DNA of 64,000 nucleotides from Felis catus (lineage: Eukaryota), in contig NC_058375.1 in NCBI RefSeq assembly GCF_018350175.1, positions 62,001 to 126,000 of the forward strand, given 5' to 3'. The position numbers and the translations under genes are program-made. Of this stretch, positions 27,401-52,330 are shown in pieces; within the stretch, counting starts at the first letter, position 1; every line of letters begins with the position of its first letter. The notes beneath the pieces are model-generated. The model had not been told where the DNA came from, ran no database searches, and worked only from the letters and a program-made list of their open reading frames with translations.

Positions 27401-29268
27401 CAATCCTGACCGGCAACGGACCCCTCCCCTAGTTACGATGGGACTTCAGACCTGGCCACCGTAGAGTCGTACGACCCCGTGACCAACACCTGGCAGCCTG
27501 AGGTGTCCATGGGCACAAGGCGCAGCTGCCTGGGTGTGGCCGCCCTGCATGGGCTCCTGTATGCAGCTGGTGGCTACGATGGGGCCTCCTGCCTCAACAG
27601 GTAGTGGCCGGGGTCGGGGCCGGGTGGCCTCTTGGGGTTGGTTTGGCTGTAGGTGTGGCCGCATCAGGGTTGCAGAAGTCATGCCTGAGGGGAGCAAAGA
27701 GGGATCCCACCTGACTCGAGTCACCCGGTGCCCTGGGCTTCTCCATCTGCACCAGCCCAGCTGCCCTTTCTTTTCCTCTCAAGTTCTTCCCAGCAGCCCG
27801 GGGGCTGGGCCCATGTGGACACTTGCCCAGGGTCTTTCAGGCAGCCAGCCAGCGGCTCATGCCCACCCAGAAGGCCTGTTTCTTGCTGCAGTGGGATTCT
27901 GGGGTCAGTCTCTGTGACTGCCCAGCATGGGACTGTAGTCATTCCGTAGGGGAGGGCAGGTCCTGGAACCAGGGCAGCCTTTCTGCCACTGCTCAAGGTC
28001 AGTAGCAGACCTGGTGTCCACAGTGCTGAGCGCTATGACCCTCTGACGGGAACATGGACGTCCATCGCTGCCATGAGCACCCGGAGGCGATACGTGCGTG
28101 TGGCCATGCTTGGTGGGTGACAGAGCCTGCTTTGTGTAGTGCCCACACCCCCACCCCTACCTGCCCCCACCCTGAGGACCCCACATGTAGCAAGCACGCC
28201 GTGGGTATGTTGACTCTCTGCAGATGGGAACTTGTACGCGGTGGGTGGTTACGACAGCTCATCGCACCTGGCAACTGTGGAGAAGTATGAGCCCCAGGTA
28301 CGAACCCTCACGTTGATTTCCCTTTCTAAGAGCTATTTGAGGTCATCACTCTGGTCACCCATGTCACCCAGAGGGTCAACCCTCTGCATCCCATCCCTTT
28401 CGCACAGATACCCTGCCCCGGAGTAGGGGTCTGCGCTGTGGAGAAGGGAGGCTTGTGGTGGGTCTGCCCCCAGCCACTTTCCTCAACCACAGGTAAACGC
28501 GTGGACCCCCGTGGCTTCCATGTTGAGCCGACGAAGCTCAGCAGGGGTGGCCGTGCTGGAGGGGGCTCTCTACGTGGCCGGCGGCAATGATGGCACCAGC
28601 TGCCTCAACTCTGTGGAGAGATACAGCCCTAAGGCGGGTGCCTGGGAGAGTGTAGCACCTATGAACATCCGAAGGTGCGCTCGCCCCTCCTCCACAGCCC
28701 GGGGGTCTTCACCACCACCTACCAGCGCCTGGCAGATAGGTCTAAGGGCCTCACCCCTGTGGGGTGTGCCAACCCCTCCCTTCTGTAACCACCCCCCCAC
28801 CTCCCCGCCAGCTCCAGGTCCCCGCCCCCAGAGGCTCCTCCCCTGGCCCTGCCCCCAGAAGTTCCGCCCTGGTCCCACCCCAGAAGCGCCTCCCTGGTCC
28901 CGCCCCCAGAAGCTTCTCTCCCCCCCCCCCCCCCCCCCCCCCCCCGCCCCAGAAGCGCCTTCCTGGCCCCGCCCCCAGAAGCTCCTCCCTGGCACCACCC
29001 CCAAGGCTCACCACCCCGACCCCACCCCCACGCCTCTAGGAGCACCCACGACCTAGTGGCCATGGACGGCTGGCTGTACGCGGTGGGGGGCAACGATGGC
29101 AGCTCCAGCCTCAACTCCATCGAGAAGTATAACCCGAGGACCAACAAGTGGGTGGCCGCGTCCTGCATGTTCACGCGGCGCAGCAGCGTGGGCGCGGCGG
29201 TGCTCGAGCTGCTCAACTTCCCGCCGCCCTCTTCACCCACGCTGTCCGTGTCGTCCACCAGCCTCTGA
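24021..29268 (+). CDS. KLHL17: Kelch-like protein 17 (actinfilin), BTB-BACK-Kelch, 643 aa
   Basis: Exons 24021-24130, 25021-25280 (GC donor), 25368-25489, 25642-25863, 26354-26470, 26677-26890, 27205-27349, 27433-27600, 28024-28112, 28224-28297, 28493-28674, 29040-29268 (TGA); total 1932 nt. N-terminus [52 protein letters not shown], repeated LYAVGGxDG Kelch motifs. Confidence 0.98.
28815..29010. repeat. C-rich minisatellite (~25-26 bp unit) in KLHL17 intron 11
   Basis: About 7 degenerate copies of ctggycccgcccccagaagc..., with an internal poly-C run at ~28920-28945. Confidence 0.85.
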
Positions 29269-38931: not shown

Positions 38932-39504
38932 TGTGCTGCGTGTCCCCGCGTTTTCCACTCAGCAGCCAGGAGTCCCCTGTCCTGGGGACCCTGTGCACAC
39001 GCCGACCCGGCACCCAGCTTGGTAGCCTCCGTTGCTCTGCCGCCACCAGCCTCCCACCCGCGTTCCTGCCCCATCTCTGGCTCCTCAAAGCCCCGGGACA
39101 ACCCCAAATGTTCAGTCCCTTTACCTGACACCACCATATTCTGCCCCTGTACCTCGTCCAGGGTTCCCCACAGGAGGGGCTCCAGCCTCTGCCCTACAGA
39201 CCCTCACCCTGCTAGGGCCGCCCTCCTATAAGCCCCTGTGGGTTCCTGCTCATGGTCTCAGGAGCCCAGAAGGCCTTGGCCACATGCCCCTGGGGTTCAG
39301 GGGTCAAAGAGGCCTCAGAGGTTTTCACTACCCCAGTCCACTTGTAAACAGGGCAGATAGTCTCTGGGACGATCTGGAGGGGGCTCCACCTGAAGGCCAT
39401 CCAGTCTCCTCGCCCTTGCCCCCTGCCTGGATCTCCAGCTGCAGCCTTGCTGCTGCACTGACACCTTCTAGTTTCCAACACTTTGTCCTGCTTCTCACCC
39501 CAGC

Positions 39505-39646
39505 TCACCAAATGAAACATAGGACACCCCGTTAAATTTGATTTCAGATAAGCCACGCGTAATTTAGTACAATCTCCAATACTGCATGTCTGGAATGCAA
39601 GTTTCACCGGACACCCTATGTTTTTATTTGCTAATCTGGCCACCTT
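39505..39646. mobile_element. MER53-like palindromic hAT MITE remnant in the PERM1 3'UTR
   Basis: aggacacccgttaaatttgatttcagataa ... tttttatttgctaatctggccacc resembles both ends of the MER53 consensus as recalled. Confidence 0.6.
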
Positions 39647-39902
39647 CCTAACCAGCTCCTTGCTCAGCCCTACCCACCCAGCCTTCCAGAATCTCCCTCT
39701 TTCCAGGTGTGGAGCACAGCCTTGGCCTCAGCCACTGGCTAGACCTTTGGGTGGAATCCAAGGGAGCCAGGACCGAGGACACTGGCTCCTTCCTAGATGC
39801 CATAGGACACAGGGATCAAAGGGCAAGACCTGAGGCGGCACCTCGTCCCGAGCCCCTGGGGCCACTTCTTTGTCCTGTGTCTTCCTGGACCAAGCCTGGA
39901 TC

Positions 39903-39920
39903 CTACCAGCTGGGGCTGGG

Positions 39921-39952
<32 letters not shown>

Positions 39953-42900
39953 GCCCCTGCCCCACGTGCCGGCGGAAGTAGTGGATGGCGGAGATGGTAC
40001 CGATATTGGCCAACAAGACTGCAAGAGAAGCACGAGAGAGCCTCCTGAGTGCCGGCTGCCTTCCGGTCTGGCCACTGTCTTCTATCCACACGGCCTGGCC
40101 CTCAAAGGGCAGGAGGAGGCCAGCGGAACTAGGGGTGGGTCGGGGAGAAATCTGTGCCTCTCCACGCACCCCTCATCCCCGCTGGCCCGGCAGCTGAGAC
40201 TGGACACCAGCTGTCATCCTGGGCACCAGCCCACTCCTCCCCCAGGGCCCCCAAACCTGTTTTCCAGGCGTCTGGGGTGTGCAGATCTGATGTTCTCACA
40301 GCCCAGGTGGCAAAGGCTACGAACACCAGGCACATGTCATTCTGGCTGAAGGTAAACGAGGTGAGAGGCTCCCGGGGCTCTCCTAGGGAAAAGAAGCATG
40401 CTCTGTGCTCCGGCTCCACCCAGGCTCGTCTGTCCCAGACACGCTGTCTGAGTCACTTCTTCCGTGTAGTACCCCGTCCCAAGACACAGGGTAGTGTGTG
40501 GCACAGTTGAGTCAAGCTGACCTCAGCAGGATTTGCCGCTGGGGTACCATTTCCTGGTTTGTAAAATATCTTGCAGGGAAATGTGAGAGAAAGTCTATTG
40601 AGTGCCCGACCCAGCAGGCAGCAAGGCCTGAGCGTGAGCTGTCCCGGTGTTTACTGTGCTAGAGGCCGGGGGCAGGGCACTGCTGTCATCTGGGCCCGGA
40701 TACAGAATGACGGTCAGTGCAGAGACAAGTTCCTGAGTGGCCGTGGTGTCTGGCCTCATCCACCCCACCTGGACTGTGTCCTGGGATGGCCAGGAGCTAG
40801 TCCATCCTTCCCGGATCATCCCTAAGGCCCCCCTAAGGGCTCATGACCCGGGGTCCTAGCCTGCCCCTCCCCTGCAGCCCTCCTGGCTGAGCTCTCTGGA
40901 CAGTACGTTCTCGGGACCTGGACAGCCCCGGGGCCCACGCGACACTCACCTGCTTGGCTGAACTCTCTGGACAGTACGTTCCCGGGACCTGGACAGCCCC
41001 GGGGCCCAGGCGACACTCACCTGCTTGCCTGACTGCCAGGCTGAGCTGCTCTGCTGTGACTGGGCTAGGCTCTGGTGAGGTTCCAGACCCCACTCCCCAG
41101 GGGACCGACCCGGGGGGCTCTGTGGCCTGCAGCTGGAGAAGGGCAGCCAGCTCTAGCACGCCCCCCGACACGTCCTCCCCAAGGAAGTGTTCATAGGCCT
41201 CGGGGATGGAGATGGGCACGGGGTCTCCAGGCGGACAGGCTGGCACAGGCTCAGCTTGTGGGGGGCGGGCCACGGAGTGGCCCCCCCAGTGCCCTGACCT
41301 CTGGGCTTGGCGGTCCTGGAAGAAGAACTCGCATGTGTCCGGCCACTGTACTCCGGCCAGCGCCTGGTCAGCTTCTGCCGCCTCCACAGCATCTTTATCC
41401 TCCTCCTCAATAGTGTCACAAAAAAAGAACTCGTAGGCCTCTGGGAGGGTCACTGCAAAGCTGCTCCTGGGCCTAGACCCCACAGAGGCAGAGGGGGGAG
41501 GGGAAGGCAGGTGTTTGAGGATCCGAGGCTGGGGGGACCGGGGCCCGACTGCCACAGCATCCCAGCCTCCAGGCCTGTCTCGGCCCCCGGCTGCTGTCCT
41601 GGGAGGCGCGGGCCGGGCTGTGGCTGGTGAGGGTGGGCCTGAGGTTTCTCCCAAACCTGGCTCCTTGGGGCTGGGCACGGCCATGGAAAATCGCACTCTC
41701 TTCTTCTTGGGTGCTTGAACAGAGCCTGGTAGGGGGGGCTCCCCCGAGTGATGTCCAGGGGCACCTGCTGAAGGCTCCCCTCTGGGTTTCTCTTGGTGTC
41801 CTTCTGGAGACACAACAGAGCTCAAACACAGCCTGGCCATCGGGGCAGCCTCCACCTCCACCAAGTCAGGCCCAGCCCGGGGAAAGGGAGCAGGTGTAGA
41901 CACACCTGCATCGGATCGGGTCTTGGAAACAAGGTGAGGCAGAGCAAGTGTAGATGAGTCCACCTCTGGCTTAACCACTGGGCCCACCACAGGTAGGTCC
42001 ATGTCCAGTCTAGACTTGGGGGCAGGTGTAGACAGAGCCATGTCAGGTTGAAGCTTGGAGGCGAGTGTAGACGGAGCCACATCTGACTTAGCTTCGGAGA
42101 TATCTGGATGAGTCTCCTGGGCAGGTGTGGACGCGGTGTGTGGCTCGGCTCTGGGGGTCATTCTGAGTGGGTCTGTACCTTGCTCAGTCGTAGGGACTGG
42201 TGTAGACAGACCCAAATCTGTTCCTCGCTTGGTCATCTGCGCAGGCGCTCCTGCAGACTCTGGACTCAGTCCATTCTGCCTGGTTCCTGGTGTCTGCTCT
42301 GCTGTTCCAGCCGAGAGACCCTTCCCCCTGGACCCAGCCAGACCAAGGTCCTCCTTGGGCCCGGCCTCAGCAGGCAGCAGGGAGCCCAGGTGGGTGGGAG
42401 CAGAGCCCGGAGTATTCGAGCACCGGCCCCCCTTGGCTCCGGCCGCGTGCCTCTTCTTTCGGCCAGGGCTGCGTGGCGCGGCTCCAGGAGTGCCGGGGGG
42501 CCTCTGGGGAGCAGTGGTGCAGCCGGGAGACTCGGGGCTCTGAGGAGACTCACCAGGGGGACTAGGATCAGGGTCCTGGGGGGCTGGCCCCTGCAGAAGT
42601 CTCTGCATCTCGTCTCTGGAAGACGCTGGCCCTGGGAGCGACGAGCTGTGACCTAGAGGGGCGGCGTCAGATGCGAGGGACGGCAAAGCTTCTGACTGTG
42701 CGGACGTGCCGGGCATCTGCTGATCAGCCCCCAGGGCCAAGACAGGCTCACGCCAAGACCTGCTGACCAGTGGCCGGGTGGCGGCCTTGTCCTCCTTCTT
42801 GAAACCAGGCCAGCCCCTCCCCCCAGCAGCCGGCTGCCCCTCGAGGAGGGGTGGAGGCCCAGGGGGACTGTGGCCACTGCTGTCCCCTTGGTCAATGTCA

Positions 42901-43022
42901 CTGGACAAGAGCTCATCCGCAGAGGCCAGGCTGGCCTGCGGGAGGCCACACTCTTCAGTCGTGGCTGCAAACTCGGCCCAGTCCTGGTCACTCAGCTGGA
43001 TGCTGTACTGGAAGTTTTCCAT
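39903..43022 (-). CDS. PERM1: PGC-1 and ERR-induced regulator in muscle 1, 747 aa
   Basis: Coding exons 41021-43022 (the acceptor of this exon is at 43183/43184), 40257-40382 and 39903-40018 (TAG); total 2244 nt. N-terminus MENFQYSIQLSDQDWAEF; C-terminal block FSQNDMCLVFVAFATWAVRTSD...WKTVLLANIGTISAIHYFRR. Confidence 0.96.
40886..41027. repeat. 71-bp tandem duplication spanning the PERM1 splice donor
   Basis: Units 40886-40956 and 40957-41027 differ at 3 positions. Confidence 0.97.
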
Positions 43023-45811: not shown

Positions 45812-46562
45812 CCTACTCACACTGTTCTCCTGTGAGTCTCCTGTGCTACCCACACAACNNNNNNNNNNNNNNNNNNNNNNNNNNNNNNNNNNNNNNNNNN
45901 NNNNNNNNNNNNNNNNNNNNNNNNNNNNNNNNNNNNNNNNNNNNNNNNNNNNNNNNNNNNNNNNNNNNNNNNNNNNNNNNNNNNNNNNNNNNNTTTAGTC
46001 ACAGGTAGTGGGTCCCCAGGTCACCCACAACTTGTTGGCTACAAACCAGTTTCCCATGACCCTTCCCCCTTGGATTTGATTAACTTACTAGAGCAGCTCA
46101 CGGAAGGCAGGGAAACATTTACTTACATTTACCGGTTTACCGTACGAGGGTATGATAAAGGGTACAGGTGAACAGCCGGATGGAAGAGATGTGCGGGGTG
46201 AATTATGGCCTGGGTGCCACTCCCCCCACACCTGCACATGTTCAGCAACATGGAAACTCTGTGAACCCCATACGATCGGGATTTTATGGAGGCTTCCTCA
46301 CATAGGCATGATGGGTCATTAAATCCAATTCCAGCCCCTCTCTCTCTGGAAGAGGGGGTGTTGCTGGGGCTGAAATTTCCAAGCTTCTAATCATGGCTGG
46401 TCCTTCTGGTGAGTATCTCTATCCCAGAGCCCACCCGGAGTCAGCTCATTAGAACAAAAGGTGGTCCTGGTGCTCTTATCGCTTAGGAATTCACAAGGGT
46501 TTCAGTAGCTCTGGGCCAGGAACTGGGAGCAGAAACGAATATGTGTATTTTCTACAATCTCA
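45812..46562. mobile_element. MER21-like ERVL LTR (contains N gap 45859-45993)
   Basis: ctagagcagctcacggaaggcagggaaacatttacttacatttaccggttta..gatggaagagatg resembles MER21-family LTRs. Confidence 0.65.
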
Positions 46563-47370: not shown

Positions 47371-48096
47371 GCCCAGTGCCATGTCAAGGCTTGGGTGGCA
47401 CACGTGTGTGGGCTTATCTGTCTACAGGGGCAAAGCAACACAGCCTCACATGGGGTTGGAGCCCCATAAGGTGAGGAGGTTTGGAGGGTTTGGGACAGAG
47501 GCTTTTTAACAATTGCCCTGGCTGCCCTGGGAGAGGCAGGGAGACCAGCTCTGAGACTGCGGGGAGGGAGCAGGGGGACTAGGGTGAGGCCATGTGAGGA
47601 CTGAGCTCTACCCAGAGGCTGTCCTTTCCTCCTCTCCCACCCAATCTTGGAGGACCTCATCGTGGGGGGCAGTGGAGGGATGTCTGCTGTAGGATGAGGA
47701 AACCAGGCAGAGCTCTATAGCACATCAGGATATGTTCCACAGTGGATGTTAAGTCTTGGTGGAGACCTGGGCCAGGGGGAACAAGTGATGGATAGATGGG
47801 CAGTCAGACACACATTCCATGGAGCCGGGAGCATGGGCCCAAGCAGGGGGAAAGGTGCAGGGAGAGGGAAGTAGAGGGCAGCCTGCTGTACCCCCAGGGA
47901 GCACATGAGGGCACCAGAGTTCCACCGGAAGCAGACAGAGCTCAGCCCTTCCGGCCCTTACCCAGGTCTGAGGGAATGGACACTTAGGGGATGCTGGGCT
48001 CCCTTTCCTGAAGCCATGTAGTCCCCTTGAGCCCTTGAACTTGAGACAGTAAAAGTAAGCCAATTTCGATGAGTAGCTATTATGTGCCAAGGAGTC

Positions 48097-48220
48097 TTTC
48101 TCTTTTCTTTAAGTTTTATTTTAAGTAGACTCCACTCCCAACACGGGGCTTGAACTCACGAGGCTGAGATCCTGAGATCAAGATTCCCATGCTCTACCAA
48201 ATGAGCCAGCCAGACACCCC
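48097..48220 (-). mobile_element. Short-type CanSINE
   Basis: ggggcttgaactcacg..tgagatcaag..tgagccagccagacacccc; degenerate TSD tgccaag.agtc. Confidence 0.85.
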
Positions 48221-48509
48221 ACATGCCAAGCAGTCGTAAACGCTTTACACAAATTATGAGCTTTTAACTTTTTAAAAAATAGTTTTATTGAGGTATAACT
48301 TACATACAAAAAACTGCACATATTTGAGTGTAAAATTTGCTAAGTTTTGACATTTGTGATGCCCAGGAAGCCATCACCATAATCCAGAGAGTGAACATGC
48401 TCATCACCCCTAAAGGTTCCTATGCTCTTGGTGATACCTCCTTCCCCTACTCCCAAGGTAACCATCAATCTGCATTTGGTAACTATAATTAGGTGACACT
48501 GTCTAGAAC

Positions 48510-48856
48510 TATTATGCTAACAGAAATAAGTCAGTCAGAGAAAGATAAATATATGATTTTACTCATATATGGAATTTAAGAAACAAAACATGAATATAGG
48601 GGAAGAGAGGCAAAAATAAGATAAAAACAGAGAGGGAGACAAACCATAAGAGACTCTTAAATACAGAGAACAAACTAAGGGCTGCTGGAGGGGCACTGGG
48701 TGGGGGGATGGGCTAGATGGGGGATGGGCATTAAGGAGGACACTTGTCAGGATGAGCACTGGGTGTTATACGTAAGTGATGAATCGCTAAGTTCTATTCC
48801 TGAAATCATTATTATACTGCATGTTAACTAACTTGGATAAAAAACAAAAAACTAAT
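48510..48856 (+). mobile_element. Carnivore L1 3' end
   Basis: aaataagtcagtcagagaaagataaata..gatgggcattaaggaggacacttg..gatgagcactgggtgtta..A-rich tail. An older antisense L1 3' end lies at ~48270-48510. Confidence 0.85.
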
Positions 48857-49045
48857 NNNNNNNNNNNNNNNNNNNNNNNNNNNNNNNNNNNNNNNNNNNN
48901 NNNNNNNNNNNNNNNNNNNNNNNNNNNNNNNNNNNNNNNNNNNNNNNNNNNNNNNNNNNNNNNNNNNNNNNNNNNNNNNNNNNNNNNCCCATCTGTACTT
49001 TAAAATTTTTTTTAATTTTATTTTATTATTTTTCACAGTAATCTT

Positions 49046-49505
49046 GGGCACCTAGGTAGCTCAGTCGGTTAAGCGTACGACTTCAGCTCAAGTCATGATT
49101 TCGCAGTTCTTGAGTTCGAGCCCTGCATCGGGTTCTGTGCTGACAGCTCAGAGCCTGGAGCCTGGAGTTCTGTGTGTGTCTCTCTCTCTCAAAAATAAAT
49201 AAACATTAAAAAAAATAAGTAAATAATAATCTCTATACCCAATGTGGGGCTCTCACTCATGACCCTGAGATCAAGAGTCATATGCTGTACTGATGGAGCC
49301 AGTCTTTTTTTTTTTTTTTTTTTTTTGAGAGGGAGAGAGAGAGAGCACCAGTGGGGGAGAGGGGCAGAGGGTGAGAGAGAATTTTAGGCAGGCTCAGAGC
49401 TCAGCGCAAAGCCCAATGCAGGGCTCAATCTTAGGACCCTGGGCTCATGACCTGAGCTGAAATCAAGAGTCAGACACTCAACCGACTGAGCCACCCAGAC
49501 GCCCC
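49046..49505. mobile_element. Cluster of three CanSINEs (one +, two -)
   Basis: Head at 49046 (+); minus-strand fragment 49229-49302; minus-strand copy 49305-49505 with T tail and (GA)n. Confidence 0.88.
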
Positions 49506-49509
49506 TTTT

Positions 49510-52330
49510 TAATTATACCTATCCTGGTGGGTGTGAAGCGGTATCTCATTGTGGTTTTGGTTTAAATTTCCATGATGACTATGATGCTGNNNNNNNNNNN
49601 NNNNNNNNNNNNNNNNNNNNNNNNNNNNNNNNNNNNNNNNNNNNNNNNNNNNNNNNNNNNNNNNNNNNNNNNNNNNNNNNNNNNNNNNNNNNNNNNNNNN
49701 NNNNNNNNNNNNNNNNNNNNNNNNNNNNNNNNNNNNNNNNNNCATATTTATATATTATATGCATGTTTTGCAATGTTTTTCTCCTCTGTCTTTCAAATTT
49801 TTTTGGATAATGCCTGTTGAGGCACAAGTTTTAATTTTTACAAAGTTCAATTTATCCTTTTTCTTTTGTCACTTATGCTTTTAGTATCATGCCTAAAAAG
49901 GCTTTGCTTAAGGCCCTTCATCACCCAAGATCATTTTCTTCTAAAAATTTTACGAAAGTTTTAGCTCTTACATTTATGTGTAGTATCTGCTTTGAGTTAA
50001 TTTCTGTGTATGGTGTGAGGAAGAGAATGGCTGATCAGATGTCCCAACATTTGTTGAAATGACTCTTCCCACATTAGGTTGTCCTGACATTCTTGTTGGA
50101 AATAAACTGACTGTAAATATGACGGCTTATTTCTGAACTCTCAGTTCTATTCCACCAGTCACTATGCTTAACCTCATGCTAGTTCCACACTGTCTTAATT
50201 ATTATTGCTTTGTAATAAGTTTTGAAATCAGGAAGTTTGAGCCCTCCAACTTTGCTTTTCTTTTTCAAGACCATTTTGGATATTCAGGGTTGCTTAAATT
50301 TCCATATGAATTTGGAAATTCAGCTTGTCTGTTTCTGCAAAAATCTTAGCTAAAACCTTGTTAGAGATTGCATTAAAACCAAAGGCCTATTTGTAAAGTA
50401 TTAGCATCTTTTTTTTTTAAGTTTATGTATTTTGAGAAAGAGAGAGAGAGAGAGAGAGAGAGAAGCAGAGACACGGAGCTTGACGCGGCGGCTTGGAACC
50501 CATAAACCATGAGATCATGACCTGAGCTGAGATCAAGGGCCAGATGTTCAAATTGTCTAAGCCACCCAGGCACCCCTGTGAAGTATCAATATCTGAACAA
50601 TGTTTAATCTTCTGATCCATGACATATCTTTTCATTTATTTAGAACTTCTTTAATCTCTTTCAGTAAATGTTCTGTTGTTTTAAAGCCTGAGTTTTGCAC
50701 TTCTTTTATTAAATATATTCCTAAGTATTTTATTCTTTTTGATGTTATTATTAGTGAAAGATTTCTTAATTTCATTTTCAAAAGTATTCGATGCCAGTGT
50801 TTAGAAATACTACTGATTTTTAAAATATGTATTTTGCACCCTGCAACCTCACTTAATTCATGTATTAGTTTTAATAGTTTTCCTAGTGGATTTCTTTGCA
50901 TATAAGGTCATGTCACTTGAACACAGGCAGCTTTACTTCTTCCTTTCCAATATGGGTGACTTCTATTTCATTTCCTTGCCTAACTGGCTTGAACTCCCTA
51001 CACCGCCGGACAGAAGCGGCAAGAACGGACACCACTGTTTTAGCCCCGTATCGCGGCGGTTTGATTATGTGGCTCCTTGACGTAGTTTTCTTCAAATTTC
51101 TTAGGCTAGAGTTTCAATGAGCTTCTTGGATCTGTGGGTTTATAGTTTACATCAATATTGGAAAAATTCTATTCATTATTTCTCTCAGTGGTTTTTGTTG
51201 TTGTTGTTGTTTTTTGCCTCCTCTTCCTCCTCCTTCTGGGACTCCAATTACATGTATATGAAGCCACTTCAAGTTGTCCCACAACTAACTAATGTGCTTT
51301 TCTTGTCTTTGCTTCTTTTCTACTTTTTAAGTCTCTTTCACTTTGAATAGGTTTTATGGGTACACTTGCAGTTCACTATTACTAGTATTTTCCTCCTCAA
51401 TGTCTAATCTGCCATCACACCCATGTCTAGAAGCTCAGTGGGTTTCTATGAAGGTCTCTCAAACCTTCAGTCTTTCCTGTAGCTTCTTGAACATATGAAG
51501 TATGACTGTAACAACAGTTTTAATGTCTTTGTCTACTGTTTCTATTACCTGTGACATTTCTGGTTTACTTCAGTTGATCGATTTTTCTCCTATCATGGGT
51601 CATATTTTCCTGCTTCCTTGTATGCCTGGTAATTTTTTACTGTCTGCCAGACATCATGAATAGTAATTGTTGGGTGCTGGATATTTCTGTGTTCCAATAA
51701 ATATTCCTGGGCTTTGTTCTGGGGCTTTGTCTGGAGACAGCTTGATCCCCTGGGGCCTTGTTCATAAACTTTATTAGGAACAGCACTCGCCGTAAGGCTA
51801 ATTATCCCTCACTACTGGAACAAGTCCTTCTGAATACTCTACCATGCGCCCTATGAATTACGGCCTTTTCCAATCTGGCTAGAGATGAGCCTGGGTAAAC
51901 TCAGAGGATTTTTCTCTCTAATCGTTTCTGGTGGCTCCTTTCCTGGCCTCAAGGAGTTTCCTCCCAGTGTGATCCAATCAGCCTTCAGGGAGACCCTCTG
52001 CATGTCTCTGGAGTCCCCTCCGTGGCTTCTCTCGCCTTGCTGACACTCTGTCACAGGACTCCAGCCGCAGTGGTCCCCCCAGCCCCACCCTGCCAGCTCT
52101 GCCTCCTGGACTCAGAAGTCTGCTAAGCTCTGCCTGGCTTCCCCTCCCTGAGGTCAAGGCCTAAACACCGTCTTCTGACAGCTGGGGCAACACAGGGCTC
52201 ACTTCACTGGTTTCTCACTTCTCAGGGACCCACTGAGGGAAAAGCCTACTACTTCATATATTTTGTCCAGTTTTTAGTTGTTTCAGGCAAGAAAGTAAAT
52301 CTGGTCCCTGCTACTCCATCTTTGCTGGAA
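49510..52330 (-). mobile_element. Degraded L1 (ORF2 RT-region remnants plus 5' fragments)
   Basis: Minus-strand translations HIGKEEVKLPVF and KLLKLIHELSEVAGCKI..RIKYLGIYLIKEV..LLKEIKEVLNK match L1 ORF2. Interrupted by a gap (49590-49742) and a SINE. Confidence 0.88.
50410..50576 (-). mobile_element. CanSINE inserted in L1
   Basis: T tail, (GA)n, gagatcatgacctgagctgagatcaag, aagccacccaggcacccc; degenerate TSD gt.aagtat.a..atct. Confidence 0.9.

Follow-up and report, generated by a model that had tools for sequence, protein, structure and literature searches.

The large coding exon of PERM1 in the cat (Felis catus) ends within a tandem 71-bp duplication carrying two identical CAG/GTGAGT splice donors, 71 nt apart, at the exon/intron boundary. 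The upstream, in-frame donor (donor 1) is likely to be the main splice site, and the downstream copy (donor 2) is likely a mostly unused pseudo-donor with a small leak cleared by NMD, left by an old and near-neutral duplication; we put the probability of this reading at roughly 0.6. The window is the whole stretch of DNA analysed, 64,000 nucleotides in length, and all positions refer to it.

Gene structure and the duplicated exon boundary

The translation of the large exon was 100% identical to Felis catus PERM1 in UniRef, and the gene was assigned as a PERM1 orthologue on sequence identity together with the conserved C-terminal helix motif, located at residue 683. Pfam searching with a local copy returned 0 families for 5/5 proteins, the precomputed label being PF28384. 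In the penultimate exon, 35 of the 42 residues were identical between cat and human. The coordinates of the features are collected in Table 1.

The duplication was detected by Tandem Repeats Finder (TRF; period 71, 2.1 copies, 40884-41032, score 270) as the sole such array near PERM1, by a repeat search (copies at 40884-40954 and 40955-41025, 96% identity), and by direct comparison, in which the units were identical at 68/71 positions and differed at +12, +39, and +59 from each donor. A match of this extent between adjacent units is, judged from the letters, far above chance level. On the minus strand, both units carry CAAGCAG followed by GTGAGTGTCGC; the exon ends fall at 41021 and 40950, respectively, and GTRAG sites between 41100 and 40300 were confined to these two donors. 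The original prediction of a tandem 71-bp duplication with two identical donors is confirmed, and the three mismatches that it had counted between the units were found again.

Table 1. Positions of PERM1 features around the duplicated exon boundary
Feature	Position	Strand	Remark
PERM1 large coding exon, from ATG (43022) to donor 1	41021..43022	-	667 codons + 1 base
Duplication unit 1, exon end and first intron bases	40955..41025	-	three G-runs between donors
Donor 1, exon ends at 41021	41013..41023	-	in frame with next exon; U1 duplex -14.1 kcal/mol
Duplication unit 2	40884..40954	-	two G-runs after donor; third lost via G/A difference at +39
Donor 2, putative exon end at 40950	40942..40952	-	identical 11-mer; U1 duplex -14.1 kcal/mol
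Penultimate exon, 126 nt	40257..40382	-	encodes start of conserved C-terminal domain
Hydrophobic helix codons, cat residues about 683-696	40297..40338	-	probable counterpart of mouse mitochondrial anchor
Premature TAG reached via donor 2	40317..40319	-	
Last exon, coding part up to normal stop	39903..40018	-	matches orthologue C-termini

Joining of donor 1 to the next two exons gave an in-frame product of 747 aa. With donor 2 in use, the exon would be 71 nt longer and the frame shifted, giving 712 aa with the end peptide originally predicted; the stop would end 60 nt ahead of the last junction (63 nt if measured from its first base). The frame claims made for both donors were right. Retention of the whole intron after the large exon would give 729 aa.

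Unit 1 opens with GT, and its final CAG abuts the second GT, so that the unit might be spliced out as an intron (GT...CAG), regenerating a donor by recursive splicing or intron gain and leaving a normal mRNA. An intron of 71 nt is near the minimum size. Pyrimidines, however, occupied 8 of the 20 positions before this AG, compared with 14/20 and 16/20 at the true acceptors, and unit 1 was rejected as a new intron for want of a usable acceptor; we regard this origin of normal mRNA as highly improbable.

Several other features of the window were recorded. The Arg/Ser/Pro tail of PERM1, the length of which differs among mammals, is encoded by a 6-bp repeat of 7.3 copies at 39909-39952. An AT-richer stretch with AATAAA at about 39500-39645, in the 3' region, resembles a MER53-type MITE and may be the source of a polyadenylation signal. 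Upstream of PERM1, N gaps totalling 419 bases lie at 45859-45993, 48857-48987, and 49590-49742, and GC falls to 0.36 at 48001-52000, perhaps a LINE. At 28812-29029 lies a 25-bp tandem array that is degenerate and C-rich and contains poly-C runs.

Authenticity, origin, and age of the duplication

Public sequencing runs were searched with 39700-42200 as the query (264 sampled words); the search returns best holders only, so that other alleles would not show. Nineteen holder rows from 10 studies were listed, of which 16 (8 studies) were at share 1.00 and 3 at 0.99; one study is a possible source of the assembly, and 7 studies remained at 1.00 without it. No RNA run was among the holders listed. 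A single-unit allele would miss 75-97 of 2471 31-mers, so that its expected share would not exceed 0.970; the probability that no more than 1 sampled word is missed would then be 0.002 per run. The copy number in the listed best holders therefore fits two units. In addition, P0122, an ENA-derived gene call with 3 members, was 100% identical over a 95-aa read-through across both units. Because its sequence upstream of the repeat differs from the window (91% over 148 aa to the cat model P0002), P0122 was not copied from the assembly of the window.

Tandem placement of two haplotypes by the assembler would be harder to recognise from the run shares, since this model has just 28 diagnostic 31-mers and the chance that no more than one sampled word is missed is 0.18 per run, and N gaps are present elsewhere within the window. 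It would require, however, heterozygosity at three positions within 71 bp in every high-share sample, and P0122, from another assembly, covers both units in one reading frame. Such a misassembly is scarcely credible, and an artefactual origin of the duplication is very unlikely overall. An assembly echo, against which the original prediction had already argued, was dropped on the run shares of 1.00 and the P0122 read-through.

The ancestral state was examined in orthologue gene calls that read into the intron, of which 11 tails were scored. Four of the 11 (P0061, P0083, P0111, and P0118) aligned colinearly with one unit plus its downstream flank, with one-unit scores of 63-99 and second-copy scores of 18-29; the alignment of the other seven was too weak for judging unit number. 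The four were labelled by similarity as pangolin-like (P0061, 88% to pangolin proteins), squirrel-like (P0083, 85% to marmot), and primate-like (P0111, 84% to orangutan; P0118, tamarin). Since these tails, all from non-carnivore outgroups, show one unit, one unit is taken as ancestral and the duplication as postdating the split from pangolins; the lineage specificity that had been predicted is a matter of interpretation.

Three positions one period apart (41032, 40961, and 40890) begin with TCAG(G/C)CA, and replication slippage or microhomology-mediated repair at these short matches would explain the origin of the duplication. The three differences between the units amount to 4.2% divergence (Poisson 95%, 0.9-12%), and because the copies differ at these sites the duplication appears to be old rather than recent. 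At the +12 codon P0061 matches unit 2 and at the +39 codon unit 1, a pattern which suggests that each copy has changed separately. At mammalian substitution rates the duplication would be millions of years old and, given such an age, may be common to other felids. A 19-nt pattern was also met in metagenome contigs at 2 loci, each matching the window over just 20 nt, and these matches were taken as chance.

Choice between the two donors

Both donors were the top two of 54 GT sites scanned for computed U1 pairing, and in RNA folding neither was consistently masked (mean unpaired, 0.37-0.38 versus 0.37-0.45). The duplicated donors were followed in rank by a third donor-like site, which lies at 40769 (minus strand) within this intron and has a computed U1 pairing of -10.8 kcal/mol.

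The donor-1 junction was used in the cat model P0002 and in a snow-leopard model, such models being largely homology-guided, and the C-terminal helix motif was found in 95 of the 120 matches. The intact and conserved downstream exon, the helix motif, and, weakly, the gene models favour continued use of donor 1; the conservation of that exon is also compatible with a sizeable leak through donor 2. The donor-2 junction was present in none of the 122 proteins fetched, which were cluster representatives only. A search with the 95-aa read-through, likewise among cluster representatives only, gave 7 matches among 434 longer candidates (0/7 near-length) and no donor-2 junction.

The layout, in which a donor is reiterated downstream of the authentic one, belongs to an already described class, represented by the minisatellite of human F7 intron 7 (Borensztajn et al. 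2006), in which the extra donors are normally silent according to excerpts of PMC1557585. As in F7, the first repeat unit of the cat array spans the exon/intron boundary (unit 1 contains the exon end at 41021) and an identical, intact donor downstream (that of unit 2) would contest a single acceptor (PMC1557585, in part). The F7 array differs in having 5-9 copies of 37 bp with a CV of 74, in being a polymorphic VNTR, and in that the silence of its extra sites has been shown experimentally (PMC1557585, same excerpts), whereas cat PERM1 has 2 copies of 71 bp that are 4% diverged, donors of CV 100 on the scale of that paper, and a 2-kb exon upstream. The likeness lies in sequence structure, silence and copy-number variation being features demonstrated in F7. 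In the same excerpts, the most upstream of the 5-9 identical F7 donors was alone used, even up to CV 91 (PMC1557585). A further parallel is the human CBS 844ins68 allele, a single duplication of about 70 bp across an intron/exon junction and thus similar in size to that of the cat, in which, as far as the text drawn on from PMC2630376 goes, one copy is strongly preferred and normal mRNA is kept. Literature searching for a UPF3A donor-VNTR case found none, and the part of PMC10078293 covered held no directly comparable case. Among the matches listed for PERM1 isoforms and splicing nothing concerned a duplicated donor, and a search for PERM1 in cats, with most subscription journals outside its coverage, gave only an unrelated paper.

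Reporter experiments lead to a different expectation. With strong donors at least 45 nt apart, splicing was about 100% to the intron-proximal site (Hodson et al. 2012; excerpts of PMC3413131). These constructs resemble cat PERM1 in their pair of strong, identical donors spaced by more than 45 nt and differ from it in their artificial spacers; the cat donors are separated by native intron, and splicing from the proximal one would shift the frame. In F7 minigenes, moreover, sites with the cat sequence CAG/gtgagt (CV 100) were alone in competing, with about 70-90% use against the weaker CV-74 upstream site (PMC1557585, in part). Since both cat donors are perfect consensus sites 71 nt apart and the reporters favour the downstream one, some leak through donor 2 is plausible.

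That leak could be large and unregulated, donor 2 taking more than 10% of splicing, with most of the product removed by NMD and the lower PERM1 output tolerated or compensated. The equal U1 pairing, the proximity rule of the reporters, the competition offered by CV-100 sites in F7, and the G-run-rich stretch after unit 2 (6 runs in 100 nt) would all fit, and NMD would keep such transcripts out of annotation. The natural cases of this layout, as excerpted in PMC1557585, nevertheless use the first donor, and a costly donor might be expected to have been lost rather than to last long enough for three substitutions, although at 4% divergence a 9-mer would probably stay unchanged by chance. A large unregulated leak is on balance fairly unlikely.

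The preferred reading, predominant use of donor 1, would come about as follows. Donor 1 keeps its native exonic context and is transcribed first, and may be preferred for both reasons, while the formerly intronic spacer between the donors, with its three G-runs, would tend to suppress the intron-proximal site. Of 32 downstream intronic elements set between two rival donors in reporters, 27 acted as suppressors of the proximal 5' site (excerpts of PMC1877881). Mutation of the G triplets in F7, on the other hand, left site choice unchanged (PMC1557585, in part), and for this reason the suppression by G-runs is put forward as a proposal only. Any leak through donor 2 would yield a frameshifted mRNA, likely to be mostly cleared by NMD, and the net outcome would be a small, unregulated drop in PERM1 mRNA.

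Predicted consequences of donor-2 use and their meaning

The helix segment of the cat protein starts at residue 683, and orthologues place the helix about 50 residues from the end. Hydropathy, averaged over 13 and 15 residues, peaked at residue 684 in the cat, and averaging over 19 residues missed the helix in both the cat and the hyena protein. After donor 2 the helix codons are out of frame, and the predicted 712-aa product is without the helix. In mouse muscle, the C-terminal helix of PERM1 ties mitochondria to the MICOS-MIB complex; the predicted helix lies at 740-755 of the C-terminal segment, and deletion of 736-759 abolished the association with mitochondria and with MIC60/MIC19/MIC25 and kept the binding of ankyrin B (excerpts of PMC8361071).

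The fate of donor-2 transcripts depends on the position of the premature stop. NMD is usually triggered by stops that precede the last junction by more than 50-55 nt, and the distance of 60 nt found here exceeds this threshold and lies near a graded boundary. Excerpts of a preprint describe NMD as graded, declining over the range from -54 to -42 nt; in two minigenes about 30% of the RNA remained beyond -54 nt (bioRxiv 10.64898/2026.03.24.714003). Because the stop sits just past this boundary, donor-2 transcripts are likely to be degraded, though incompletely.

The last intron (40019-40256, minus strand, 238 nt) was read through, in place of using the last exon, in 4 of 120 models, namely cat P0002, horseshoe bat, orca, and beluga; if it is retained in vivo, such retention would change the C-terminus and let transcripts escape junction-dependent NMD. 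The C-terminal helix motif was lacking from P0014, P0021, P0029, P0055, P0065, and P0093, which are named isoforms of whales, bats, and a gibbon and apparently arise via other acceptors or exon skipping. Since helix-less isoforms are annotated in these animals, a truncated PERM1 would not be unique to cats.

A stable, helix-less isoform of 712 aa would be a cytosolic or nuclear PERM1 uncoupled from MICOS-MIB. The RNA left by graded NMD, the read-through of the last intron, which would delete the downstream junction, and the mouse protein without helix, which is not mitochondrial and still binds ankyrin B, speak in its favour. It requires, however, use of donor 2 and escape from NMD jointly, and the lack of a donor-2 junction among the proteins fetched counts weakly against it; we consider this isoform improbable.

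Unproductive splicing switches, such as the poison exons of SR/hnRNP genes, are regulated and deeply conserved. Cat PERM1 resembles an AS-NMD switch in that the stop of its predicted alternative product lies further than 50-55 nt ahead of the last junction. Deep conservation, by contrast, was not observed: the event was absent from the pangolin-, squirrel-, and primate-like sequences, and its conservation reaches carnivores at most. The anatomy would allow the rheostat originally predicted, in which splicing factors tune donor choice, the PERM1 level is set through NMD, and selection keeps the arrangement, since the two donors are equal and separated by G-runs, and the premature stop falls narrowly beyond the NMD boundary. 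The duplication origin, however, fully accounts for the identity of the donors, and nothing in the analysis supports use, regulation, or conservation, and we strongly doubt this regulated form. More generally, it is quite unlikely that donor 2 receives a large, and perhaps regulated, fraction of the PERM1 transcripts in cat muscle and heart.

Cat PERM1 is a natural setting in which to test how donors of full consensus strength compete, and one for which the rule derived from F7 (first site wins) and the rule derived from reporters (nearest site wins) make opposite predictions. If the upstream donor alone is used, the gene would be a naturally occurring exception to the proximity rule for donors of maximal strength, and if donor 2 is not substantially used, the array would be a harmless intronic duplication. 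Substantial use of donor 2 would mean that cats lose part of their full-length PERM1, the form with the predicted mitochondrial anchor, and would be of interest to comparative muscle physiologists and feline cardiologists. Were the share large, cats would possess a built-in damper of PERM1 or a helix-less PERM1 unable to anchor mitochondria, with possible implications for felid muscle metabolism and feline heart disease.
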